Origin: a virus
Virus record (IMG/VR): IMGVR_UViG_3300037247_000655
Span: 1-64,000 of that record
Reading direction: 5' to 3' (one strand)
Length of the DNA stretch: 64,000 bases
Each line of letters starts with the position of its first letter. Position 1 is the first letter of the stretch. Under the pieces are notes generated by a model. That model was given only the letters and a program-made list of their open reading frames with translations. It had not been told where the DNA came from and did not search any database. A program made the translations under genes and the position numbers. Of the stretch, positions 1 to 37,327 are shown one piece after another.

Positions 1-548
1 TGCGTCCTAGTCGACGTTCCGACCTCGATAATTAAATCCAAGATAGAAGTGGACTATTAAAAAGACTTGCTATAAGGAATGCCTATCGGTATGACATTGC
101 GCCCGTGGTGGCTACTAACCTGATCGACCGACTTTACCGTTACAAGAATCTTCGACTTCCGTGTGACGACTTTCGCTCTCACCTTTGCTGTCTGGCGACT
201 AGGCCTTCAACCAACATTAGTGGCTATTATCGTGCAGACTTTCCGATTCTAGAACTTAGGACGGAATCCTACCACGAACGGATACCCCTTTATCGGGCTT
301 CAGACTGACGGTTTGGCTACTAGACCCCAAGCGTTAGACGATGAGACCATTGACCTACTACGTCAACCCTGACGGTTTACCGCTGACTAGACGGACCCCA
401 CTCTTACCTCCGTGTTGACATTCCACATCAGGACGTTATCGGTCGCCCCATATAATGTCCAGCGTCACTGGACGACTAGAATGTCCAAAGATCCACGCTC
501 GGAGCGACTTAGCTTATGCACCCCGAGCGCGGTACTGCAGACACTCGA
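1..548 (-). ncRNA. Candidate large structured ncRNA, probably continuing past the left window edge
   Basis: About 550 nt downstream of the 549..887 gene with no credible ORF. Minus-strand hairpins include GTCCAG-tgacg-CTGGAC, GGGGCG-accgataa-CGTCCT, CGG-taaa-CCG and ATGTC-ataccgata-GGCAT. Confidence 0.3.
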
Positions 549-887
549 CTACTTGCCCATATCGTTGAACGCCTTACGAGTAGCACCAACTGTGTTCCTA
601 CGACCGAGAATACTCTCGCCGATTACAGCGGCACTGTCTGAACCGAAACCAGCGTCAACAGGGGGCGTAAACCCTCCGCCATCCTCAATCTGACTTTCCA
701 AGACTTTCCACGCATGACTGAGCGCTGCGATAGCATCGTCCAGACTATCGAAACCAGAAGCAGCATCGACGATACGCTTCGCGTCGTGATAGACGGCCGC
801 GTTAGCCTTGAGCGAAGTCAGATCAAATCCAGCTTCAACGCTCTTTTCGGTAGACGTTCCGACTACTGTGCTATTGGACTGACCCAT
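549..887 (-). CDS. Hypothetical protein (112 aa)
   Basis: Strong RBS (CAGGAG) before the ATG and protein-like composition. Confidence 0.7.
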   Translation of the reverse strand: MGQSNSTVVGTSTEKSVEAGFDLTSLKANAAVYHDAKRIVDAASGFDSLDDAIAALSHAWKVLESQIEDGGGFTPPVDAGFGSDSAAVIGESILGRRNTVGATRKAFNDMGK

Positions 888-1556
888 AGTTATCTCCTGT
901 TTTTTGGGTCCGCCCCATAACCGAGACTACACCGCCCAATTATAGGACGGACAAGTAGAAACGTTACCGGAACTTCAAATTATACTATACGACCGGATTG
1001 CCCGGAAGTTATCAGACCTGTGCCGGATTCGACACAGATCGGTGTGCCACAAACACACGCCGATGCCAATTTGTTATCGGTGTATGTTGTTTTCGTCTAC
1101 ACTATATCTTAGGCTTAGTTATAGCAATCGTCAAGTAGCGCCCGCAAATAGATTTTCCGCGTTTTTGGGCTCCAATCCACGATATTATAGACCAATTACC
1201 GATAATATGCAATTCGCAAAACGTCCGCTTTCTGAGATCACATATCGGTCCAAAGCCTATAATAACCCGCCGTATTCGCGCCAAAGCGTGTTTTTATCAG
1301 CAAGACCTATAATACATATTATGCGCGTCTTAATATGGGGTCCTATAACGCGAAAAAACCTCAAATCGGCGATATTATCGCTATTATGGTATAAAAAAAC
1401 ACGTCCGCAAACGTAAAAGGCTGGTTTCAGGCTTAGAATGGCGATATTATGGGTGAAAAGACACAGGATAAGCTAGTTACCGGCATCGTCCCATATTCCT
1501 CACTGCCCAAAGTCCTATAACATATATGAGTTGTCAAGGAATCGTGTACAACTGGA

Positions 1557-2060
1557 TTATGGTCTGATAATGTTCAGATTTGCCATGGGTCCGAAAACCT
1601 CGATCGCCATTTCATTATAGGCCCTAGCCGCCTCTATCTCAGTCCGATAAGTCTTTCGAGTTGCCTTACCGTGATACTTTATTTGTGCCACCCAAGGGTG
1701 TGATAATCCAGGCTGCTGATAGAAAGAAACGCCCTTATATTGGGACCATTTGGCATCGCTTCTTTTGCGCATATTGCCGTTATTATCGGAAGCTGTTACA
1801 ATGCGCAGATTGGACCGATAATTGTTTAGTCCGTTTTTGTCGATATGGTCCGTATAACATTTGTTGCCGCGCCAAAGTCCCATAACCAGCCGGTGCATGT
1901 AGATTGTTTCTCGGACCTCACGTGGTCCGATACCTACTGTTACAACATAGTGTGTCAAATTGCGCCTAGTCTTGATAAGATGCCAATTATAGCGTCTTAT
2001 AAGCTCAGCATCATCGTTGTCGAAGAAGACCGATAATCCTTTGATTTTCATTTGTCCCAT
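1557..2060 (-). CDS. HNH homing endonuclease with AP2 domain
   Basis: MHRLVM...DHIDKNGLNNYRSNLR (HNH_3 type); C-terminal SQYKGVSF...WVAQI...EIEAARAYN (AP2). Confidence 0.9.
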   Translation of the reverse strand: MGQMKIKGLSVFFDNDDAELIRRYNWHLIKTRRNLTHYVVTVGIGPREVRETIYMHRLVMGLWRGNKCYTDHIDKNGLNNYRSNLRIVTASDNNGNMRKRSDAKWSQYKGVSFYQQPGLSHPWVAQIKYHGKATRKTYRTEIEAARAYNEMAIEVFGPMANLNIIRP

Positions 2061-2065
2061 AATGT

Positions 2066-2094
2066 ATTATACGCCCGAACATTGTTGTTGTTCC
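2066..2094 (-). promoter_or_regulatory. Class-1 promoter GGAACA-N15-CGTATAAT, probably giving a leaderless HNH-AP2 mRNA
   Basis: Matches a motif seen 9 times in the window; the ATG lies 5 nt after the -10 element. Confidence 0.7.
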
Positions 2095-2318
2095 GATAAT
2101 ATAAGAATTTTCTTATAAATATAGGACCAAGAGCTGCGAATACCCTTAGTCCCATATTGTTAGTCTTGGCTATTTGTTGTCCGATAATGCCCGTTTCATT
2201 CTCCGTTTGTTGTCGGTCCATATCTTTGCGCGAGCTACCGATAACTTCAAGTTTCTGTCTCTCTTGACTTTTCGCCAATTTTTATCGGACCTGCGCTCGT
2301 AATACATACACTTCGGTT

Positions 2319-2540
2319 TCACGTTATCGGCTCCTCCGTTTTCCGGACGTTCCCATCTTCGTCCGTATAATCTGCAATGTCCGATACAAATACGGTGGTG
2401 CGCGGAAATTTTATTACAGGATATTCGCCACAATATCCGATAAGTATCCCTTCAAACGGCCACTTATTCAGTGTCACTTTACTACCAACAGGTATCATAT
2501 TATCGCTCCTTTTCCGATAACTACTGTCCGGCTGCGCCAC
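2319..2540 (-). CDS. Small hypothetical protein, KOW/SH3-like (likely start MIPVGSKV)
   Basis: IPVGSKVTL motif; RBS AAGGAG before the internal Met. Confidence 0.5.
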   Translation of the reverse strand: MAQPDSSYRKRSDNMIPVGSKVTLNKWPFEGILIGYCGEYPVIKFPRTTVFVSDIADYTDEDGNVRKTEEPIT

Positions 2541-2994
2541 ACAATTCCTGAAGAGTTATAGGACACGCGCTCGTATTCGAGTCAGTTGCGTTTCTGTCCG
2601 GTAATCCTACTGTGTCCGCCTCATCCTTATCGGACAATAGCATAGTGCCGATGAAACCGAAGTTCCGCGCCAACCGGGATTTCAGTTGTGCTTTGGCAGA
2701 TACCTTGGAGCGCCCGAAAGCACACATTCCATATAACTTGCTGTGAAACGGACCAACGATTTCCGCCCGATAACCCCAAGGTGTCTTCATGTACCAAAAC
2801 CGGACAGCTCGCCGCTTATCTGCGCCGCATTCGTTTTTTTCGGACGACATTGCCGGTGGATTTATCGGATCGTAATCTGTGTCGAACTTGTGGCTCAATT
2901 TGTTATGGGTCTCTATGTTGGTCCGATCAGATAGTCGTTGCCTGTTTCCGATAACATTGGATACTCTAGTTCCCATAATTATTCCCCTCATCAT
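2521..2994 (-). CDS. Hypothetical protein (157 aa)
   Basis: ORF in the leftward gene string with RBS GAGGGG. Confidence 0.6.
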   Translation of the reverse strand: MMRGIIMGTRVSNVIGNRQRLSDRTNIETHNKLSHKFDTDYDPINPPAMSSEKNECGADKRRAVRFWYMKTPWGYRAEIVGPFHSKLYGMCAFGRSKVSAKAQLKSRLARNFGFIGTMLLSDKDEADTVGLPDRNATDSNTSACPITLQELCGAAGQ

Positions 2995-3199
2995 TATTGG
3001 CGTCCGATAGTTTATCGGTTCGGCCTACACTATATCATAGCATATCTGCGCCGGGAAGTCTAGCCGATAACCTGTAAATCCAAAAAACCTTTTGTGTCCT
3101 ATAAAAACGCACACAAGCCAAACTGGCTAGCTCAGGTCCGGTAACGTGCAGTACTCGTCCGATAATGATTATGTCGGCGCAAATAGAAGGTCCGATAAT

Positions 3200-3866
3200 C
3201 TATGCAAGAGCTATCGTTACAAGTACGGCCAATAACAGTGTCCGAATCCAGAACATCGTTCTCATATCATCGGTCTCCGAGGCATAGGTCCAATAAATAT
3301 GTGTGTTGCTCGCACATCCGATAATCAGGCCATCTCTCCGGAGCGTGGAATTCTTTATCGGTCTGCTCAGTGTATTCGATAGTGGCACACTCTTGGTCTG
3401 ATAACCAACGTACTATACTCGACACAAACATGTCCGGTATCACAACAAACGAGGGATGCCCAGTCATTCTAGTCCGATAACGTATTAGTGTCATGTGTCC
3501 CATAATGTTATACTCCAATGTCGTCCCATATTGACCAGATACTTATCGAACCTACAACCACCACCAAACAACATCCGATAATAGCAGCTATCATATTGTT
3601 CCCCCTTTTTCAAGCGTGTCTTTATTCTTGTCGTATTGTGCAATCGTTTTTCGTGTTTTCTTATCGGCTTTCCACCGTCTGATAAGCTCAGCAAAGAAAC
3701 GTCTGATAATATTCACAGTTGTCCCCCCCGTGTCAGAACCGAACATTGTCTAAGAACCGAACACGATGCCAAGAATATTCTGAAGGTCCGAAAACAAGTT
3801 GCTCAGATTCGCTATCACAATCGTTCCAATCGTTCCTGCGAGGCCGAGTATTGTGGTAATATTCAT
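3200..3866 (-). CDS. String of very small genes: 3750..3866 (38 aa, hydrophobic), 3591..3716 (41 aa), 3508..3594 (28 aa, TM), 3267..3503, 3200..3265 (21 aa, hydrophobic)
   Basis: Manually translated; G-rich RBSs, and abutting or overlapping starts and stops. Confidence 0.55.
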
Positions 3867-3908
3867 CGTCGTGTCCCCTATCATAAAGTGTATCGTTCAA
3901 CCTAATGG

Positions 3909-3937
3909 AGTATAGGATACAATCCGATCGATTGCAA
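3909..3937 (-). promoter_or_regulatory. Sigma70-type promoter TTGCAA-N17-TATACT driving the leftward genes
   Basis: Near-consensus hexamers with 17-nt spacing, upstream of the first leftward gene. Confidence 0.65.
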
Positions 3938-4413
3938 GTATGGAAAAGATATTTCTTTCGTCCGATAACATCATGCGTGCGATGGTCTATAGGGTGCGAG
4001 GTATCGTCCTATAAGTACACAGGCAGAACAAGATGTATGGTCCGATAAAGTTTGTAGATGGCGTCCGATAAGCTCTTGCACGTCGTGCAAGGTTATGTCC
4101 GATAAGCATGTGTTGATAGCATAGTCCGATAAGGTTCGTCAAGCATAGTAGTCCGATAACAAGCTCAGGGGGGGGTAGCCCGATATATAGAATGTCCGAT
4201 AACGGGATAGGGGTCCGATAACGCGAGGGGGATCGCTCATAGTAGAACCCAAAATCATCCTACCCTACAACTTTTATCACACCATATTTATCGTAGCCCG
4301 CCATTCTCTTCACCACCCTCCTTCTTCCCCGCTAGGGGCCACCCCTTCTTTACACCCTCAAACCAATCGCTTTATCAGACGTGCATTTATCTGAAAAAAA
4401 ATCGGAGGGACGT

Positions 4414-4442
4414 GCAATAGGGAATGCAGTTAGACGTATAAT
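4414..4442 (+). promoter_or_regulatory. Class-1 promoter GCAATA-N15-CGTATAAT
   Basis: Recurrent motif at the head of the rightward operon. Confidence 0.7.
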
Positions 4443-4527
4443 AGATAGCAACCAGATGGGATTGCTCTCGTGAGTAAAACGCCGTGCCCTACTCTTTTGT
4501 GTCTTGCAACTTGAGGTATCATGAAAC

Positions 4528-4773
4528 ATGTCGGGACAACAGTCATATGCCCTCATATATGTTAATGGAGACTCTGTCGGTTGCTTCGAAGGGGAAGAGT
4601 TGGCATACATTGATTTTATAAATTTTACGACAGACTCACCATGTACACAACATGAGCTTTTCAGTATCACGTATAGAAAAGGACCAGGTAGTAATCCAGA
4701 AGGAATCTTGGCACCAAAGAAAACAGTAATCGTAACTGACGGTATGATTTTTGATGTTATTGTCACTAGTTAG
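4528..4773 (+). CDS. Ubiquitin-like (Multi_ubiq / multiubiquitin domain) protein
   Basis: IYVNG...ITYRKGPGSNPEGILAPKKTVIVTDGMIFDV matches the recalled pattern of bacterial multiubiquitin domains. Confidence 0.7.
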   Translation: MSGQQSYALIYVNGDSVGCFEGEELAYIDFINFTTDSPCTQHELFSITYRKGPGSNPEGILAPKKTVIVTDGMIFDVIVTS

Positions 4774-4782
4774 GAGATAGAA

Positions 4783-4995
4783 ATGATTCGTATTTTGAGC
4801 AAAAATGATCAGGTTCTTATTGCTGGTATCGGCGCGTCCGGCGTTACTATAGATCCAGATGGAGTGCTATTAAATCTAGACATAGATGATTTTGATATAA
4901 TTGACATCGATCTTGATGATGGGAAAGTGGTACAAATCCGATCATTATCCACTGTAACATACGACCTTGAGATCAGTAGATTGATTAAAACATAG
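4783..4995 (+). CDS. Hypothetical acidic protein
   Basis: RBS AGGAG, in operon. Confidence 0.6.
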   Translation: MIRILSKNDQVLIAGIGASGVTIDPDGVLLNLDIDDFDIIDIDLDDGKVVQIRSLSTVTYDLEISRLIKT

Positions 4996-5063
4996 AATTT
5001 GGCAAGAATAACCATGCGATTACTTTGGTGAGCTTCGTATGGTCTTTTATATTGGAGAAAGTT

Positions 5064-5348
5064 ATGAGAGCTAGAATTGGTGATTTGGCGATTGCAAGAT
5101 TTGATCCTACAAAGGACGATATCAGAGCTGGTAAAAAATGGAACGAAAAGGTATGTTTAGTTATAGAGGCTTTTACTTATGGACGAAACGATACTAGATC
5201 ACATAGATTCATCTACTGGGACGGTAGTATATATCAAAAAGATCTACCACCGCATCGTCTTGTTCGTGTTCGCCTGAATCGTGATTACGACTGGACAGGG
5301 AACTTCCAAGACATTACAATAGACAAAGTGGTTGAGGTCAAAAGATAG
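5064..5348 (+). CDS. Hypothetical SH3/KOW-like protein
   Basis: RBS GGAG before MRARIGDLAI. Confidence 0.55.
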   Translation: MRARIGDLAIARFDPTKDDIRAGKKWNEKVCLVIEAFTYGRNDTRSHRFIYWDGSIYQKDLPPHRLVRVRLNRDYDWTGNFQDITIDKVVEVKR

Positions 5349-5380
5349 CAACATAATGCTGCTCTCATGAGTTTCGCACA

Positions 5381-5845
5381 ATGAAATCGCTTAAAAGAAA
5401 AGCTATCCCAGATTACCCAGACTATTTCGCTGACAGAGAGGGACTTATCTGGAGGAAACTTTATGGTTCGTGGCGTGTTATTAATCCTGTCACACACCAT
5501 GATGGTTATCAATACACTTATGTTGGTATACAGAAGCGTGTGTTGACACAACGTTTGGTCTGCGCGGCTTTTAAGGGTATGTGCCCAGAAGATATGCAAA
5601 TATGTATTCGTCGGGCCAAGAATCAACAGCCTCGTAGACTGAGATCACAGAGATATTTGAAATGGGGAAAATACACCGATAAGAGAAAAAGAAAGAATTA
5701 TACTAGGCTATCAGAAAGCGATCAAAAACAAATACTGAGATTGTATAAAGAAGGAAAGACTCAAATTGATATAGCTCGTCGATTTGGAGTGACACAGCCC
5801 GCAATTTCGTATCTAATCAAAAGAAAAACGAGGAGTGTAGTATAA
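5381..5845 (+). CDS. Degenerate NUMOD4/HNH-like protein with C-terminal HTH
   Basis: KAIPDYPDYFADREG (NUMOD4-like); QRLVCAAFKG in place of HRLV; TQIDIARRFGVTQPAIS (HTH). Catalytic His/Asn residues not evident. Confidence 0.7.
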   Translation: MKSLKRKAIPDYPDYFADREGLIWRKLYGSWRVINPVTHHDGYQYTYVGIQKRVLTQRLVCAAFKGMCPEDMQICIRRAKNQQPRRLRSQRYLKWGKYTDKRKRKNYTRLSESDQKQILRLYKEGKTQIDIARRFGVTQPAISYLIKRKTRSVV

Positions 5846-6105
5846 TGGAAATCATAGTTTGTCTTAAGTTAGAAGTTGATGGGGACCAAGTGAAGGCAGT
5901 CAATGGCACCAATGACACCGAAGACCAAATTAAATCAAAGATTCGGGCTTGGGTTGCAGACAGAGTAGGATACGATTCTGTAGCAATCGCGGGTATCTCA
6001 TTATATAGTAGTTGTCTATTAGCAGAAATAGAAGGAACAGATACTCTGCGAATAGTACCGTCTCATCCAGTAGTGAAATTACCACCTGACACGAAGATAC
6101 AATAA
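5845..6105 (+). CDS. Hypothetical protein
   Basis: Start overlaps the previous stop; RBS GAGGAG. Confidence 0.6.
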   Translation: MEIIVCLKLEVDGDQVKAVNGTNDTEDQIKSKIRAWVADRVGYDSVAIAGISLYSSCLLAEIEGTDTLRIVPSHPVVKLPPDTKIQ

Positions 6106-21473: not shown

Positions 21474-21720
21474 CCATTATCTCCGGCTGGCTGCTAATTA
21501 CATCTGCCCATTGCGGCAACTCTTTACATAAGGAGTCCTGAAGTGTCAGTTGTTTTGCGTGATATTCTGAATCAAAAATTACCGGTCTCCCAGTAGTGCG
21601 ACGTATCCGCCCATCGATGCCACCTGGATTAGATTCGGCTTTTTCCTTAGATGTCTTTTTCCCATAGACCAACAAGTCTATCCATTGTTTAAGCAACTCT
21701 TTTACAGCTTTGTTATTCAT
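21367..21720 (-). CDS. Hypothetical protein
   Basis: Coupled to the MTase stop. It overlaps the 21159..21473 ORF, whose start may lie further downstream. Confidence 0.55.
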   Translation of the reverse strand: MNNKAVKELLKQWIDLLVYGKKTSKEKAESNPGGIDGRIRRTTGRPVIFDSEYHAKQLTLQDSLCKELPQWADVISSQPEIMDGYEWTRKDFIDLYFGHFLVVIEKLNRIVKQTLVV

Positions 21721-22426
21721 AATTTACCCCAAGAATTTCTGCCGTTTTTGCAATACATGGTTCACTTATTTCTATGCCCACACAATCTAAGCCAAGTCTC
21801 TGACACACTATTTCCACAGTCCCAGAACCCGCGAACGGATCAAGTACACGTCCATTTGGTTTACAGTGTCCAGAAACTATTCTATTGACGAGATCCTCTG
21901 GTAACTGGGTTGGACAATGTTTTCTTTTTTCTTTAAATGTGCCACAAATACGCGAGAATTCCCAAACATTTTCCGGCATCTTCCCATTCTTAGACGCCCT
22001 CTTGTCCTTATACTTTGTCTGTCTGGCGCTAGGCACTTTTATTTGATCCGGTCGGACATAGTCGGAGTTCAACCAGTATAACGGCCTATAGCACAATGCA
22101 TATTTACCCTTACTTGTCTGATCTTGACCGAATGTATAGTGCCACTGTAATCTTTGTATTAAAGGTAAACCTATCGATTTGATAGCGTTTTCTACTGTAC
22201 GGGTCCATTTTTCGTTAAAAGTTATGAAAATAGGACCATTTGTTATTTCGGCCATCTTAGTTAGCCATATCCAGATATTGTTCTCATAATCGTATGGATG
22301 CTGTTTATCTACAAATCCATCATATTTTAGACCTATATTGTCTGGAGGATCCGAGACTATGAGATCAACAGGTCCTATTGTGGAATTAGGAATATCACTA
22401 AAATCTCCATGTATCAGTCTAATCAT
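21713..22426 (-). CDS. N6A/N4C DNA methyltransferase (beta class)
   Basis: Start MIRLIHGD; motif IV DPPD (usually DPPY); PTQLP; LDPFAGSG. Confidence 0.85.
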   Translation of the reverse strand: MIRLIHGDFSDIPNSTIGPVDLIVSDPPDNIGLKYDGFVDKQHPYDYENNIWIWLTKMAEITNGPIFITFNEKWTRTVENAIKSIGLPLIQRLQWHYTFGQDQTSKGKYALCYRPLYWLNSDYVRPDQIKVPSARQTKYKDKRASKNGKMPENVWEFSRICGTFKEKRKHCPTQLPEDLVNRIVSGHCKPNGRVLDPFAGSGTVEIVCQRLGLDCVGIEISEPCIAKTAEILGVNYE

Positions 22427-22457
22427 CCGGTTAACTCCACATGTATCTTCATACCTC

Positions 22458-22486
22458 ATTATACGTGTGAACTGGCTACTTGTTCG
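22458..22486 (-). promoter_or_regulatory. Class-1 promoter CGAACA-N15-CGTATAAT
   Basis: Upstream of the MTase gene, preceded by a T tract on the coding strand. Confidence 0.7.
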
Positions 22487-22569
22487 ATAAAAAAAAGAAA
22501 AAAAATGGAACACTTTTTCATAATGGCCCTCTCTATATATATGGAGGGGTGTTGTTATAGGACGTTGTT

Positions 22570-22578
22570 GTGTATAAT
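22570..22578 (+). promoter_or_regulatory. Class-2 promoter GTGTATAAT
   Basis: At the head of the rightward late block. Confidence 0.55.
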
Positions 22579-22749
22579 TTTCTTGGGTGATAAAAGTGTG
22601 TGATAAAAAAGGCAAAGCGAAAGTGCGTTTGATTACTTGCGGGACAGATAAAGCTGAGGCTAAAGCTGTTGTTGATCTCGACGTACCAGATCCAGAACCA
22701 GTTGTGGGTAAAAAGATTATTCAAGAAGCAATAGGAGATTTAGAAGAGG

Positions 22750-23295
22750 ATGACAGTAAGCAAAACGATTCTTGATGCAGCTACGCCCATAATAGAGGGA
22801 CTAGCTAGATCTCGCAGTGTTAACGGTGCGTTTGCGTATTACGAAAGCGGAGATGTTTCTCAGGAGGTTTGGTACTTGTGCCTTGAAGCATTGCAGCGGT
22901 ATGATCCGAAAATAGGTCCTATTGAGAACTATCTGGTGAGACATGTGAGTAATCGTATCAAAAATTTGAGAAGAGATAAGTATTTTCGTCCTGGTTCAGA
23001 TCTTCCAAGTTCTGGATTAGCTCTCACAAGGATGAACTTAGTTAATGCTCTTCCTTTGGACAATGGGGATATAGCTGAAAACGGCACACTTTTAGGCTCG
23101 GAACAAGGCAACATTAATCCATTGGACGGTTTAATCAGGGATGAGACCTTGGCGTATATCAGGGTCAGGTTGCCAGATAATCTCATTGAACCATTCGATG
23201 ATATCATTTGCAATAACAAGGTACGGAGTCCTCTGGTTGCTGAAGTCCGATATAAGGTTGCTGAGATTTTGGTAGAAAGAGATGATTGTGCCTGA
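22750..23295 (+). CDS. Phage sigma-factor-like protein (region 2 present, no clear region 4)
   Basis: DVSQEVWYLCLEALQRYDP...IENYLVRHVSNRIKNLRR. Confidence 0.7.
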   Translation: MTVSKTILDAATPIIEGLARSRSVNGAFAYYESGDVSQEVWYLCLEALQRYDPKIGPIENYLVRHVSNRIKNLRRDKYFRPGSDLPSSGLALTRMNLVNALPLDNGDIAENGTLLGSEQGNINPLDGLIRDETLAYIRVRLPDNLIEPFDDIICNNKVRSPLVAEVRYKVAEILVERDDCA

Positions 23296-27068: not shown

Positions 27069-30000
27069 ATGTCAAAAGTAACTCTTAATGAATTACTGCA
27101 TGGTGATCAAGGAAAGTACGGATACTTATTCCCTTACAGGGATCGGGTTCCAGACATAAAGAAACATCTTCTAGATGATTTCAAACAATCCAAATATCCA
27201 CTAGACCAAACACTTATCAGTAAAATGATGGACATAGATTACATCGGGTGGACAGCAAACGTTATACTGGGTATTGATTTGTTTCCTATACAAATTGCCA
27301 TGCTCCAAATGCTATGGAACACTCCATTTCCAATGCTCGTAGCCTGTCGGGGAGGATCAAAATCATGGATGCTTGCTGTTTATGCCATTCTTAGGGGTCT
27401 TCTTGATCCGGGTTCAAAGATTATTATTATTGGTGCAGGTTTGCGACAAGCTAGATTGGTTTTCAATTATATAGACACAATATGGGCCAATTCACCAATA
27501 CTTAGGGGGATTGTCGGTGGAGGAAAAAACGCTGGCCCAAGGCAGAATGTGGATCTTTGTTATTTTAAGATTGGGGATAGTATTATCTATGCACTTCCCA
27601 CCGGGGACGGCACGAAAATTAGGGGCTTCCGAGCTTCTGTGATCATCGCGGACGAATTTGCATGTCTAGATAGAGACACGTTGGTAGAGACAAATAATGG
27701 ATTAGAAAGAATATCGGATATATCTGATCATAAAACTAGTGTCATTAATAGATATGGAGATTTCGAACGAATAGATTCCTTTATTAAAACTCCTAAGACC
27801 GACGTACATGAAATTTCTACAAAATATGGATATGGATTCAAGTGTTCTAGTATACATAAAGTAATGACCACCAATGGGTGGAAATTGGGAAAAGATTTAA
27901 CTAATAATGATTTTCTAGTTATTAAAAATCAGTATGTTTTTCCGGAGTGTTCCGCTGATGATTCTATGACTGAAGATATTGCATGGCTGATGGGTTTACT
28001 GATCTCTGATGGGGATGTCACTCGCAAGCACGGTGTCAGCATCAAGACTATCGATCAGGACCTCGTAGAGCAGGTCATAACTAAGTTTGCGGGGTTAAGT
28101 CCGAAAGTTTATACCAGAGAAGCATATGTCGATAAAAGAGGATGGAAATGCCAAAAGTCATATGAGATACATATCCACAACACCCTTTTTAGGGAAAAAT
28201 TATATTCATTAGGAATAGATTATGTGGGTGTGGCAGATAAAGTGATACCATCTATTGTTTTAAAATCTCCGAAAAAGATAGTTATATCCTTCTTGAGTGG
28301 TTTGTTCGAAGGAGATGGTTCTTGTTTTTTATGGAAGGATCGCAACACGACAAAACTCGGTGTTGCTTATTATACTATTTCGGACGCATTGGCACAGGAC
28401 CTTCAAACCCTCTTGCTGAAACTAGACATTATATCTTCCAGGCAGACAAGGAGAAGTAAATTAAGTGATAGAAAACAGTGGATGTTAAGATGTAATGGAC
28501 GCCATGCTCTTAATCTTGCTGAATTATTGAACGTGCCAAAATGGGACGATATTATACCAAGAGCACAAACATATTTTCACTCAGACGATTACGGTATTAC
28601 TTTTGACAATGGAAGGGGTAAATGGAGGGCGAATGTCGAGTATGGTGGAAAATTACATTACTTAGGTAGATATTTTGACAAAAATGATGCACTTGAGTCT
28701 GTTAAGAACTTCCAAGCTACGCATGACCCATGTGTTCGTGTAAAACTAGTAACCAAATTGCCACATCAAGATCATTTATACGACTTCTACTTGCCAATGA
28801 CACATAGTTTCCATGGCAACGGTTTTATACAACATAATTCTGTGCCCGAAGATGTTTTTGACATAGTTGTCCGTGGTTTTGCGGCTACCGCTAAATCTCC
28901 CATGGAAGAAGCTAAGAAAATTGCATTTGACAAAAAATTGAGTCAAATGGATATTCCTTCCGACATAAAGCAAAAATTGATGGTAGATGATGGCAAGATG
29001 CATGGTAACCAAATAGTATATTCTGGTACTGCATATTATGCTTTTAATCATTTCGCTAAGAAGCATGAAATGTGGCAGGAAATAATTCGCAGCAAAGGTG
29101 ATCCAGATAAAATATCTCAAATATTCGGGGGAGACAGTCTTGTCCCAGATGATTTCAATTATAAGGATTATTGTATTATAAGAATTCCACACACTCATTT
29201 ACCAGACGGACTATTAGATAAAAGACAATTGGCTCACGCCAAAGCAACTCTTCCTCGTAATATATATCTTATGGAATATGGCGCAGTATTCGTTAAGGAT
29301 TCTGATGGGTTTTTCCCCCGTAGTTTAATAGAGGGGTGCAGTGTTGGTCCCAACAAACCTTTAGACACACCAGATGGTGCTGTTACATTCTCTCCCGCAA
29401 TGAGGGGGATTAAGGGTCCCAAGTATGTAATAGGCATAGATCCAGCTGCAGAACGAGATAATCTTGCAGTTGTCATAATTGAAGTATGGGCTAATCATTA
29501 TCGCGTTGTATATTGTTGGGCTGTGAATAAGAAGGAATTCATCAAACGGAAAAAACGTGGATTGATTACAGACGATGACTACTACGCATACTGCTGCTCT
29601 AGGATCAGAGAGATAGTGCGTCTATTCAATCCTATTCGTGTTGAGATGGATAGTCAGGGTGGCGGGTATGCCATTGCAGAAATGCTTAGAAACCATAAAT
29701 TACTAGATACTGATAAGGGCGATTTCCCTATCTATGAGGTGATTGATTTTGAGGATCCCAAGTCTACAGATGGTGAGACGGACGGACGCCACATCTTACA
29801 CCTTATTAAACAGAGTTCTGAATTCAATCAAGATGCTAATATAGCCCTCCATAAAAGCTTTGAAACTCGTACTCTGCTATTCCCAGCTTTTGATAGTGTT
29901 AAAATGTACGCGGCCATCGAAGCAGAAAAGGCTTCTGGTGTAATTTTCGATACATATGAAGAGAATGTCTATAATATCGAAGAATTGAAAAACGAACTTT

Positions 30001-30338
30001 GTACTATACAAATGAGCGAGACAGCTACGGGTAGAGAAAGATTTGATACACCGCAGGTAGTTAGTCCTGGCGCAGTAGAAGGCAGGGCAAGGAAGGGTCG
30101 GTTACGCAAAGATAGGTACACGGCTGTTCTATTGGCGCACAAATATGTTTATGATACAGATATCGCTCCAGACGACAATATCGATTATAACGACGTTGCT
30201 GGCAATATCGTGAAAAGAACCAAAACAGGCAAGGATGAGCCTATGTACCGGGGTGCTGGGGTGGGTAGAATGAGGAATGCAGAGGCTGCGCGTAAAGGGA
30301 CTATTTACAAAGCCATTAAGAGGGGTAAAGCTGTCTAG
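27069..30338 (+). CDS. terL: Terminase large subunit, intein-containing
   Basis: Walker A RGGSKS, Walker B IIADEF, nuclease IGIDPA, RKDRYTA. Confidence 0.9.
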   Translation: MSKVTLNELLHGDQGKYGYLFPYRDRVPDIKKHLLDDFKQSKYPLDQTLISKMMDIDYIGWTANVILGIDLFPIQIAMLQMLWNTPFPMLVACRGGSKSWMLAVYAILRGLLDPGSKIIIIGAGLRQARLVFNYIDTIWANSPILRGIVGGGKNAGPRQNVDLCYFKIGDSIIYALPTGDGTKIRGFRASVIIADEFACLDRDTLVETNNGLERISDISDHKTSVINRYGDFERIDSFIKTPKTDVHEISTKYGYGFKCSSIHKVMTTNGWKLGKDLTNNDFLVIKNQYVFPECSADDSMTEDIAWLMGLLISDGDVTRKHGVSIKTIDQDLVEQVITKFAGLSPKVYTREAYVDKRGWKCQKSYEIHIHNTLFREKLYSLGIDYVGVADKVIPSIVLKSPKKIVISFLSGLFEGDGSCFLWKDRNTTKLGVAYYTISDALAQDLQTLLLKLDIISSRQTRRSKLSDRKQWMLRCNGRHALNLAELLNVPKWDDIIPRAQTYFHSDDYGITFDNGRGKWRANVEYGGKLHYLGRYFDKNDALESVKNFQATHDPCVRVKLVTKLPHQDHLYDFYLPMTHSFHGNGFIQHNSVPEDVFDIVVRGFAATAKSPMEEAKKIAFDKKLSQMDIPSDIKQKLMVDDGKMHGNQIVYSGTAYYAFNHFAKKHEMWQEIIRSKGDPDKISQIFGGDSLVPDDFNYKDYCIIRIPHTHLPDGLLDKRQLAHAKATLPRNIYLMEYGAVFVKDSDGFFPRSLIEGCSVGPNKPLDTPDGAVTFSPAMRGIKGPKYVIGIDPAAERDNLAVVIIEVWANHYRVVYCWAVNKKEFIKRKKRGLITDDDYYAYCCSRIREIVRLFNPIRVEMDSQGGGYAIAEMLRNHKLLDTDKGDFPIYEVIDFEDPKSTDGETDGRHILHLIKQSSEFNQDANIALHKSFETRTLLFPAFDSVKMYAAIEAEKASGVIFDTYEENVYNIEELKNELCTIQMSETATGRERFDTPQVVSPGAVEGRARKGRLRKDRYTAVLLAHKYVYDTDIAPDDNIDYNDVAGNIVKRTKTGKDEPMYRGAGVGRMRNAEAARKGTIYKAIKRGKAV
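27663..28838 (+). mobile_element. Intein (392 aa) with LAGLIDADG endonuclease and AP2-like domain
   Basis: DEFA|CLDRDT...GFIQHN|SVPED; LMGLLISDG and LSGLFEGDG; GITFD..RGKWRA...YLGRY. Confidence 0.92.
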
Positions 30339-36058: not shown

Positions 36059-37327
36059 ATGGGGAAGGAGACTGTTATGTTAAAAAAGCAAATTGATATT
36101 GAGAAAGCAATTAGACTTTATCGGGACGAGGGTAAACATACTCCAGAAGTATCAAAAGCTGTTGGATGTTCTGTTCAGACATTAATCACTCGATTAAGAG
36201 ATGCTGGTGTGACGATTAGGACGGCTGGAGAGTCTCATCAAAAAATTGATTTTGAGACAATACGACACGAATACGAAGATTTGAAGATGTCAACGTCAAA
36301 GATAGCTTCAAAGCATGGAATGAGTCAAGTTTCTATGTGGGGAAGACTGGTGAATGGGGGTGTTCAGATGCGTGATAGAAAAGAAGAGGCAAGAAAAGCT
36401 TGTATTACGATTCCTGTGTCGGATCATCTATCCATTTGCGAACGTTATAAAACCAACAAGCACGAAAGCTGTGCTGATATAGCCGAGGATTATGGAGTTC
36501 ACAGAACTACTATAGCTGCTGTTCTCAAGAAAAACAATATAACCCCTGAACATTCGGGTGCTCGCATTAAATCATACAAAGGTGGTATCACTAAGCTCCA
36601 CACAAGAATACGCAATTGTGAAAAGGCCGAATTTTTGCGGCGTGCCTGTATGGAAAGAGATGACTATAAATGTCGTATCTCAGGAGAAGTCGGCAAGTTA
36701 GAAGTCCATCATTATCCCAAAGTTTTTTCTAAGATGTTTAATGAATTCCTTGCTTTACATACGGATTTGAATCCCATCGAGGATTGTGATGAACTCTTAC
36801 TATTATCTCAGGATTACGAATCATTTTGGGAAATAGATAATGGCATGACAGTTACGGAAGAAATGCATAAAAGATTGCATATGCACAATGGAATCAAAGA
36901 TGAAGAGTTGATATCCTTGCATGATAAAGGGTGGTCATGTCAGCGTATTTCCAAGTATTTCGGCAAATCAGCGTCATTCGTTCGCGCCAGATTCTTGGCT
37001 ATTGGACAAGCTAGGAAAAGTCCAGGATTTTATAACAAGATGCGATCAGAAATAAGTGAAGAAACCCAAGCGGGAGTTTTAGAAGCTTATGTTCGTGGTG
37101 ATGTTGTCAGGCAGATATGCAACAGATATGACATTGCAAGTAGTACATTATACAAAATTCTGCGAGATAATCAGATCATTCCAGGTAATCGTAAAAAGTC
37201 TACAGAAAGTAAAGCTAGACAAGAAAGCACCAGAGTTCACCAGCTACGAGATTCTGGGGTTACTGTCCAAGAATTAGCGAGGATGTATGAAGTGAGTGAC
37301 ACAACAATTCGCAACATTCTATTGTAA
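36059..37327 (+). CDS. HNH-type homing endonuclease with about 6 HTH repeats (start may be 36077)
   Basis: ERDDYKCRISG..LEVHH...NGMTVTEEMHKRLH flanked by repeated HTHs. Confidence 0.75.
   Translation: MGKETVMLKKQIDIEKAIRLYRDEGKHTPEVSKAVGCSVQTLITRLRDAGVTIRTAGESHQKIDFETIRHEYEDLKMSTSKIASKHGMSQVSMWGRLVNGGVQMRDRKEEARKACITIPVSDHLSICERYKTNKHESCADIAEDYGVHRTTIAAVLKKNNITPEHSGARIKSYKGGITKLHTRIRNCEKAEFLRRACMERDDYKCRISGEVGKLEVHHYPKVFSKMFNEFLALHTDLNPIEDCDELLLLSQDYESFWEIDNGMTVTEEMHKRLHMHNGIKDEELISLHDKGWSCQRISKYFGKSASFVRARFLAIGQARKSPGFYNKMRSEISEETQAGVLEAYVRGDVVRQICNRYDIASSTLYKILRDNQIIPGNRKKSTESKARQESTRVHQLRDSGVTVQELARMYEVSDTTIRNILL

Follow-up and report, generated by a model that had tools for sequence, protein, structure and literature searches.

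A polar field of a nine-base word along the early operon of an uncultured phage: a conserved array of predicted protein-binding sites

The first 64 kb (the window) of the 165,526-bp virus record IMGVR_UViG_3300037247_000655 contain, between positions 940 and 4380, a block of small genes that is densely strewn with the nine-base word GTCCGATAA. This field of words is a conserved array of predicted sites for a protein that reads duplex DNA. It is the nucleotide sequence that is under selection, and in what follows we infer who may bind the field and what binding may do. An exact count gives 13 perfect copies on the plus strand and 2 on the minus strand, spanning 1642–4221, in agreement with a first-pass annotation of the stretch; the 15 copies compare to an expectation of 0.41 (maximum 3) from shuffles of the window. 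The annotation had seen no perfect copy in the remaining 60 kb, and this extends to the rest of the 165,526-bp genome. When all words differing from GTCCGATAA at one base at most are counted as copies, 54 are found at 940–4380, 42 on the plus strand and 12 on the minus strand (binomial p = 5e-5). Their density of 15.7/kb, against 0.25/kb elsewhere (40 in the other 162 kb), amounts to a 64-fold enrichment, so the motif is not equally frequent genome-wide. In an unsupervised scan, GTCCGATAA and its sub-words rank as the most clustered k-mers of the genome for k = 6 to 9.

The right edge of the field is as sharp as first described. The last plus-strand copy occupies 4213–4221, a single inverted variant follows, and after 4380 there is no copy until 10,967. 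Thirty-four of the 54 copies (63%) lie inside minus-strand open reading frames (ORFs), where the antisense copies are distributed over the three frames as 8/8/6; the motif is thus indeed written through coding sequence in all three frames. Over 26 loci, 197 copies are antisense relative to the genes and 70 are sense. The DNA of the block has no similarity match among 50,697 deposited phage records. A literature search for the word returned incidental primer matches only, and the exact main word was not found in the resolvase literature searched.

Two divergent gene arms start at about 4.3 kb. The rightward arm (4.4–84 kb) carries packaging, head, tail and ligase genes, whereas the leftward arm runs from the block through the contig junction and round to 84 kb, with about 20 kb of small ORFs followed by a split DNA polymerase, a DnaB-like helicase and ribonucleotide reductase. 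As the leftward genes lead from the block to the replication genes, the block stands nearest the promoter in the early/replication arm, which it heads. Cumulative GC skew reaches its minimum where the two arms meet and its maximum at 84 kb, almost diametrically opposite. A dense non-coding array of the word sits at this minimum, which is the only strand-switch point of the genome, between divergent host-type promoters. The “direct terminal repeat” of the record is an exact 127-bp overlap, which we take to be of assembler k-mer size; position 1 is therefore arbitrary. The overlap is assembly closure, and the contig is a closed circle, not a mapped end.

Selection on the word and nature of the site

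Triplets of the word occur in 82 stretches of IMG/VR, about twenty of which are relatives sharing the block genes and their architecture. As this first set was ascertained through the word itself, an independent second search used a conserved 122-aa protein of the block. It identified nine relatives by homology (46–100% identity), three of them new, and GTCCGATAA is the top 9-mer in 9/9, with a polarity relative to the gene of 132:8. The whole clade uses one word, contrary to the suggestion that each relative might have its own. Within the 122-aa family, whose orthologues are about 45% identical, the word is found at the same aligned positions in different frames, and the codons that bear it read V-I-G-Q, L-S-D, V-I-G-P, F-S-D and L-L-D. 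Their spelling is biased: L-S-D is written as TTATCGGAC in 8/12 family cases versus 0/20 genome-wide, and I-G as ATCGGA in 15/21 versus 12/192. The motif is therefore kept at synonymous positions, and the earlier proposal that selection is on the nucleotide sequence rather than on the protein holds. Other contigs run continuously across the block, so that it is not a chimeric assembly.

Two of the related loci deserve separate mention. The 179.6-kb relative G005 (locus L262) has a second repeat family, of the CTACCTCGTGAC type, with 16 copies in the region of the field. In CP070695.1 (locus L138), a 4.9-Mb scaffold deposited as a ‘Candidatus Heimdallarchaeota’ chromosome, a segment related to the phage lies at about 65–94 kb. 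Its field (14 copies within 1.5 kb) and its portal gene (65% identity) keep their native spacing; the helicase of the replication arm is lacking, such that the scaffold carries the phage in part only. The probable explanation is a remnant or a chimeric assembly of the scaffold, and no host should be read from it.

No consensus extends outside the nine bases in any of 19 loci, and the word has no dyad symmetry. Distances from each copy to its nearest co-oriented neighbour recur with a period of 10.3 bp (R = 0.19, n = 638), a value that none of 2000 jittered nulls reaches. The phase of the spacing is 0.48 turn, i.e. neighbouring copies lie on alternating helix faces, and is consistent in 13 loci. 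A 3-bp period in copy spacing is absent. The missing flank consensus, the helical phasing and the lack of a 3-bp period argue for recognition of duplex DNA, and against an RNA motif or independent promoters; they indicate that a small asymmetric module would recognise the duplex at the word. The first-pass annotation had described the block as a genome end coated with sites for a protein. Its protein-site part is upheld by the bare asymmetric 9-mer, the helical phasing and the codon-level selection, and its genome-end part is not borne out, as discussed below.

A tolerance profile of 600 one-mismatch copies shows that C3, A6 and A8 are fixed and position 5 is free, and that substitutions at position 4 are C to T in 51/54 cases, which gives the consensus GTCYNATAA. 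Crossover site I of Tn3 resolvase reads TGTCTGATAATTTATAAATTATCAGACA (PMC4499144). The commonest variant in the block, GTCTGATAA, is identical to the outer half-site of this site in 9/9 bases, and the main word GTCCGATAA differs from it only at the position that alternates between C and T in the field. The gamma-delta version carries C at that position, and the family consensus is TGTCYNNTA. The serine-recombinase domain PF00239, integrase and DUF6538 are all absent from the genome in searches whose positive controls worked, and no array locus bears the PROSITE serine-recombinase signature. Given the half-site match and the absence of a serine recombinase or integrase, the word is, judged by its sequence, of the resolvase helix-turn-helix (HTH) type, and the field is not a res site. 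The likeness to the outer half-site of res site I of Tn3/gamma-delta (TGTCTGATAA-T; PMC4499144), matched as TGTC(C/T)GATAA, extends to size, since that half-site is a monomer-sized unit read by one small HTH with a basic arm. However, res consists of six half-sites in three inverted, dimer-bound pairs beside the resolvase gene, whereas the field contains direct repeats in tens, with irregular spacing, one inverted copy 150 bp away and no serine recombinase.

Anatomy of the block and its edges

The features of the block and the genes discussed here are listed in Table 1. The block genes are small, mostly of no recognised family, and opposed to the rightward operon that starts at 4528. The first-pass statement that they are transcribed opposite to the adjacent operon from sigma70-like promoters is confirmed, and the host-type promoters are kept in relatives; sigma70-like sites as such are not enriched over shuffles. 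Alignment of the junction from seven relatives reveals a fixed order: three invariant copies with G-runs, which are the right-most of the array, the CTACAACTTTTCGTGTACACTCTTTCT element, a variable C-rich stretch, the inverted copy, the A8 tract, the ACGTATAATA box and a 5′ hairpin (4447–4466) whose pairing is preserved by compensatory changes. The closing of a run of direct copies by one inverted copy recurs in group E phages and in integrative elements (see below).

The dense array lies upstream of both the leftward and the rightward promoter. At the left edge, a conserved promoter (TTGACG-N17-TATAGT, with TTGACG at 1134–1129 and the -10 box near 1106) is directed away from the field and drives into the conserved 112-aa border gene with its conserved leader hairpin. 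Conserved host-type promoters thus have arrays upstream at both edges of the field. Additional -10 boxes of the TATAGTGTAG type are found near 3040 and 1100, on the sense strand of the block genes. The homing-endonuclease-like gene within the block is probably a mobile passenger. No known RNA was found with Rfam over 1–6000, and the block has no tRNA genes.

Table 1. Positions of the field, its parts and the genes considered in the text.
Feature	Position	Strand	Remarks
Polar field of GTCCGATAA-type sites	940–4380	+	consensus GTCYNATAA; 15 perfect copies, 54 with at most 1 mismatch; like polarity in all relatives
Dense non-coding array	3960–4221	+	8 perfect and 2 variant co-oriented copies with G-runs, between divergent promoters
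Conserved non-coding element	4265–4292	+	relatives read CTACAACTTTTCGTGTACACTCTTTCT; followed by a variable C-rich/G-run stretch to about 4360
Single inverted copy closing the array	4372–4380	-	TTATCAGAC on the plus strand here; TTATCGGAC in relatives
Rightward host-type promoter region	4394–4466	+	A8 tract 4394–4401; invariant ACGTATAATA, -10 box 4437–4442
Leftward sigma70-like promoter	3909–3937	-	TTGCAA-N17-TATACT; heads the operon of the block
Left-edge non-coding cluster of conserved word variants	1100–1560	-	TTATAGGAC, TTATCGGAA/T and others; about 400 bp
Conserved hairpin, leader of the border gene	927–958	-	includes the outermost motif variant
Border gene, 112 aa, conserved	549–887	-	just outside the field; found in 12 loci
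Conserved block gene	2521–2976	-	family of about 122 aa, 151 aa here; word at conserved codons
Second conserved small block gene	3267–3518	-	conserved in relatives; no function assigned
HNH_3/AP2-type homing-endonuclease-like gene	1557–2060	-	absent from the blocks of most relatives
Candidate reader, HNH nuclease flanked by 3 + 3 three-helix HTH modules	36059–37327	+	HTH_7 and HTH_23 matches
HNH-like protein with basic arm and resolvase/invertase-style HTH	5381–5845	+	1.1 kb from the array

Candidate reader and competing explanations

The best candidate for a reader of the word is the six-HTH HNH protein encoded at 36059–37327. It matches HTH_7 with 46.8 bits (cut-off 23.8) and HTH_23 with 64.2 bits, and its structure model contains six three-helix modules with pLDDT of about 80–90. 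The gene belongs to the core of the clade; it is of fixed length, 70–80% identical and syntenic, among head and packaging genes. The closest solved structures to its HTH modules are tandem-HTH DNA readers, the best match being the CRISPR-repeat-binding protein 2lvs. These matches are weak (sequence E = 0.005–0.025; Foldseek E = 0.24, prob 0.98), and a whole-chain Foldseek comparison yields local tandem-HTH matches only. Tandem-HTH readers of repeats, such as archaeal 2lvs and the paired domains, likewise read repeated DNA with linked HTH units, but those have 2–3 modules and no nuclease.

Other candidates were tried and rejected. The HTH subtype of the HNH-like protein at 5381–5845 occurs near only 8/202 array loci and shows no association with the arrays. 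For the 122-aa block protein, Pfam, PHROGs, NCBIfam and PADLOC yielded no family and the PDB no sequence match; its fold is weakly dsRBD/HicB-N-like (Z about 5), and it is unrelated to the array-adjacent integrases. Integrase and DUF6538 proteins were set aside as both are absent from the genome. A profile–profile comparison of small proteins, in search of a reader common to phage groups A, B, D and E, gave a single 69% match, which is the HNH part of a small terminase-adjacent protein. No immunity repressor was recognised among the proteins of the block or the junction.

Our preferred reading, which we put forward tentatively, is that the field carries a head-to-tail nucleoprotein coat. An HTH protein, for which the six-HTH HNH nuclease of the late region is the best candidate, would load at the 10-copy junction array and occupy the about 55 mostly co-oriented, monomer-sized GTCYNATAA sites head to tail. 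The resulting coat would act as a roadblock that shuts off the immediate-early operon in an orientation-dependent manner, and it would shield this operon from the two promoters that fire outwards. DNA processing may be a further role, with the conserved 4230–4370 segment marked for it by the same complex.

Fields of protein-binding sites are as such a known kind of system. The stoperators of Cluster A mycobacteriophages are asymmetric sites read by a monomeric HTH protein, the L5 gp71-type repressor (PMC9283540, PMC6550527). Their orientation is strikingly matched to that of transcription, and repression depends on it (PMC9283540). Stoperators are 13-mers, about 20–35 per genome, spread in short intergenic gaps of temperate phages (PMC9283540, PMC6550527). 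The field resembles them in having many copies of an asymmetric site whose orientation is tied to transcription (42:12 here, 132:8 in the clade). It differs from them in that about 55 9-mers are packed into 3.4 kb, 63% of them inside ORFs, with a word that is constant across the clade, and in that no integrase and no recognisable repressor were found in this phage. What is unusual about the field is its about 16 sites/kb, far beyond the density of stoperators, iterons or pac sites, the codon-level selection across an operon and the use of one invariant word across and beyond a deep clade. Selection on what is predicted to be a DNA-binding word visibly shapes protein-coding sequence here over a whole operon and across that clade of phages. 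The first-pass suggestion of an undescribed system is borne out insofar as no described system fits the block.

Several observations weigh against a silencing coat. About 55 sites are far above the number in known stoperator systems, where the sites are intergenic and genome-wide and not packed in one operon, and a few roadblock sites would silence the operon. Silencing also needs no nuclease domain. The candidate reader is encoded among the late genes, 31 kb away from the field, and its homologues in G003, G005 and G013 are only 30–54% identical over parts of the protein, with the word unchanged. The HTH_7 protein is absent from the T7-like and group E phages that bear the same arrays; any common reader would thus be something else or host-encoded. 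Moreover, the arrays of other phage groups are located at genome ends or near packaging genes, which favours a role in end processing.

Such a role, which comes near to the first-pass interpretation, is the first alternative to be weighed, and we consider it somewhat unlikely. The array and its inverted partner would bracket a pac/cos-like cut made by the terminase together with the six-HTH HNH nuclease; the field would be the terminal, last-packaged and first-ejected DNA, and transcription of the early operon would run in the sense in which the DNA enters. In T7-like podoviruses all copies of the word lie in the last 0.3–3 kb of complete linear contigs, beyond the terminase gene and a small HNH gene. 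The array of group E phages is found at the late/early junction, between a giant late gene or late operon and a run of small early genes, and that of group D phages upstream of an operon leading to terminase and portal. In our phage, the candidate reader contains an HNH nuclease and its gene is surrounded by head and packaging genes, and a conserved central element separates the converging copies.

The contigs of the relatives bear on this alternative from both sides. In five near-complete relatives the field is unique and 0–5 kb from a contig end, a sixth relative is alike, and the contigs of seven relatives end about 0–12 kb from the field. However, the break points fall at different homologous positions (0, -1.9, -2.7, -3.7, +3.75 and +11.7 kb), the field is spanned by several contigs that extend for tens of kb to either side of it, and contig-end mapping among the relatives shows no convergence on one site. 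The region of the field is thus break-prone, without a precise end from the contigs. The first-pass proposal that the block is an end of the genome, a terminal repeat or the segment injected first is not sustained, as the 127-bp overlap is assembly closure and the contig ends do not coincide; the genome-end idea for the field is drawn only by analogy, from the same word in the last 0.3–3 kb of complete T7-like genomes. In addition, the surroundings of the large terminase gene, 23 kb from the array, yielded no recognisable small subunit.

Comparison with described genome ends likewise cuts both ways. The repeat arrays at T7 genome ends and the pacL-pacC-pacR region of SPP1 are irregular, co-oriented short repeats near a processing site, and T7-like metagenomic phages have this very word at the genome end. 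Those arrays, however, like known pac/cos recognition regions in general, cover a few hundred bp, are non-coding and have words that differ between phages; they do not span 3.4 kb of coding DNA under codon-level selection. The first-step-transfer segment of T5 is a few-kb run of early genes that ends, at the injection stop, in a long conserved untranslated repeat region, with an HNH gene inserted among direct and inverted repeats and poorly conserved coding DNA nearby (bioRxiv 10.1101/866236), all of which has a likeness in the block. In contrast to the single word that runs through coding DNA here, the repeats of T5 are of several kinds (DnaA boxes, DRD, palindromes) and occur only in the untranslated part of a 10-kb terminal repeat. 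Pre-early genes of the T5 A1/A2/dmp type had no match among the block proteins scanned in Pfam or, for part of them, in PHROGs.

A bolder combination of the coat and the terminus strikes us as distinctly unlikely. In it, a clade of phages of about 165 kb would have at the head of the early arm a polar “runway” of about 55 head-to-tail half-sites of resolvase HTH type, retained even to the detriment of codon choice. These would load the six-HTH HNH nuclease, or a motor guided by it, and the complex would define the genome ends and coat or silence the first-entering DNA; the word would be a handle shared by unrelated podovirus termini and integrative elements, which might hijack packaging. If the word does link podovirus termini, integrase-flanking arrays and the field, a shared recognition module would have been reused for end processing, integration and gene control. 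More generally, the field would make the start of the early arm a point of control or processing in large, uncultured and little-known phages, and one DNA fragment and one candidate protein make a directly testable pair.

It is improbable that the field belongs to a replication origin, with the 10-copy array acting as iterons that a phage or host initiator would bind where arms and skew diverge, and the rest of the field as spill-over or titration sites. The array has the appearance of an iteron origin in that non-coding direct repeats coincide with the divergence of strands and with the skew minimum, the maximum lying almost opposite beyond two co-oriented arms. It also adjoins the A8 tract and a strong promoter, and the replication genes are on the arm that the field heads. 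However, the skew follows the direction of transcription and thus gives no independent sign of where replication starts. The neighbours of the array include no recognisable initiator gene, and the flank is C-rich with the A8 tract only, and not AT-rich. Neighbouring sites favour half-integer helical turns, unlike iterons, which lie on the same face, and the same word occurs at T7-like termini and beside integrases.

Promoter elements for a phage sigma-like factor, -10-only or sigma28-like, which would direct antisense transcription across the early operon into the right arm, are very improbable. CCGATAA does resemble GCCGATAA, the plus-strand copies point to the rightward arm, three sigma-like ORFs are present (22750–23295, near 93.6 kb and near 127.8 kb), and in six integrative elements the last copy precedes the integrase start codon by 38–190 bp (about 40 bp in two). 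Yet neither a -35 box nor a flank consensus is found at any locus, for which reason the reading of CCGATAA as a sigma28 -10 box was dropped; by inspection, the sigma28 spacing also fails in the Bacillaceae units described below. The copies are antisense to the block genes, none lies upstream of any other gene in 162 kb, their spacings of 16–27 bp are too tight for independent promoters, and the arrays are present in T7-like phages without sigma factors.

Slightly more improbable still is a relic of a recombination site or a mobile cassette, the array being arm-type or accessory sites as in tRNA-linked elements or res. The likeness is to six cellular loci (L135, L146, L154, L155, L192 and L210) in which a hairpin is followed by 3–6 copies and then by a divergent tyrosine integrase, with a tRNA 3′ end before the hairpin in two (L192 and L210). 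By their layout these loci look like integrative elements, in which direct copies between a tRNA-linked end and the integrase recall lambda-type integrase arm sites. Their integrase, of about 526 aa, is barely detected by Pfam and has an arm-binding-like N-terminus. The word also equals a resolvase half-site, and a conserved core is flanked on one side by the array, as it is by the accessory sites in res. Against this, the phage has no integrase, DUF6538 or serine-recombinase domain, the copies are direct repeats and not inverted pairs, and the 3.4-kb field is conserved in place across the clade.

The first-pass annotation had also offered a host-directed polar signal, i.e. Chi-like protection from RecBCD/AddAB or a cue for a translocase of the FtsK-orienting polar sequence (KOPS) type, which we regard as scarcely probable. 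Polarity is strong, density is highest beside the junction, and the copies would be Chi-competent in orientation if an end lay at the junction. However, one word serves phages of 41–59% GC, as tight arrays with 11–27 bp spacing, and recurs in more than 120 array loci of cellular genomes from many phyla; tandem spacing of 11–23 bp and helical phasing are untypical of such signals. In the Heimdallarchaeota-labelled scaffold (G006), the one cellular genome with a relative, which is a partial phage and no host call, the word is at background and unskewed, with 22 dispersed copies (12 plus, 10 minus) versus 31 for a reversed control word. The least probable reading of all is an RNA-level motif, UUAUCGGAC, read in early mRNA by an RNA-binding protein or endoribonuclease: the sense strand of the block genes bears TTATCGGAC and one block protein has a weak dsRBD-like fold, but that match is weak (Z about 5), the densest arrays are upstream of promoters, a conserved inverted copy exists and the 10.3-bp periodicity points to duplex DNA.

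The word in other genomes and further features of this one

Two composition-matched control words gave 17 and 8 triplet arrays in IMG/VR, compared to 82 for the real word. The multi-kb “fields” of the control words are collagen-like coding repeats in a single frame; at four loci of the reversed control word (L212, L225, L217 and L227), single-strand fields are Gly-X-Y coding repeats. Such repeats are a useful class of false positives for word-cluster scans. Matches in low-GC giant viruses fall in coding tandem repeats of Ser-Asp-Asn and were discounted as coincidental.

Cellular arrays take several forms. The six integrase loci belong to Planctomycetota, a candidate phyla radiation (CPR) bacterium and others, and share the hairpin CCACTT...AAGTGG. 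In Bacillaceae (L131, L109 and L129; Fredinandcohnia, Bacillus and Ornithinibacillus), intergenic tandem units of about 187 bp each contain a terminator-like hairpin and six tGTCCGATA(A/T) copies at about 21-bp spacing, with up to seven units per locus and several loci per genome. We know of no described repeat family like them. At 11 loci from several phyla (L110, L116, L136, L137, L147, L150, L160, L180, L190, L207 and L209), the arrays are at or just past the 3′ end of genes with Schlafen AlbA_2, HATPase_c_4 and winged-HTH domains.

Several further features of the phage genome were noted. The sigma-factor-like ORFs lie at 22750–23295 (+), about 93.1–93.7 kb (-) and about 127.7–128.4 kb (-); two match region 2 and one matches region 4 above the Pfam cut-off. 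Staged redirection of the host RNA polymerase by the phage is probable. The large terminase (27069–30338, +; 1089 aa) carries additional endonuclease/HNH-like segments, and the DNA polymerase is divided between two ORFs that lie some 10 kb from each other (94.3–96.2 kb and 106.2–108.6 kb, -), which suggests intein or homing-element insertions in both genes. A leftward island within the rightward arm, at 17–22 kb, includes a DNA methyltransferase (21713–22615, -). Around the contig junction (164,637–165,526 and 1–548), about 1.3 kb is ORF-free and GC-rich (about 50%), and short stretches of it, e.g. about -227 to -316, are kept in relatives. Smaller local clusters are formed by two other words, GATTGTGA at about 7490 (5/8 copies) and GAAAAAAT at about 57,720 (5/10 copies), which could serve other sets of genes as promoter or operator motifs.

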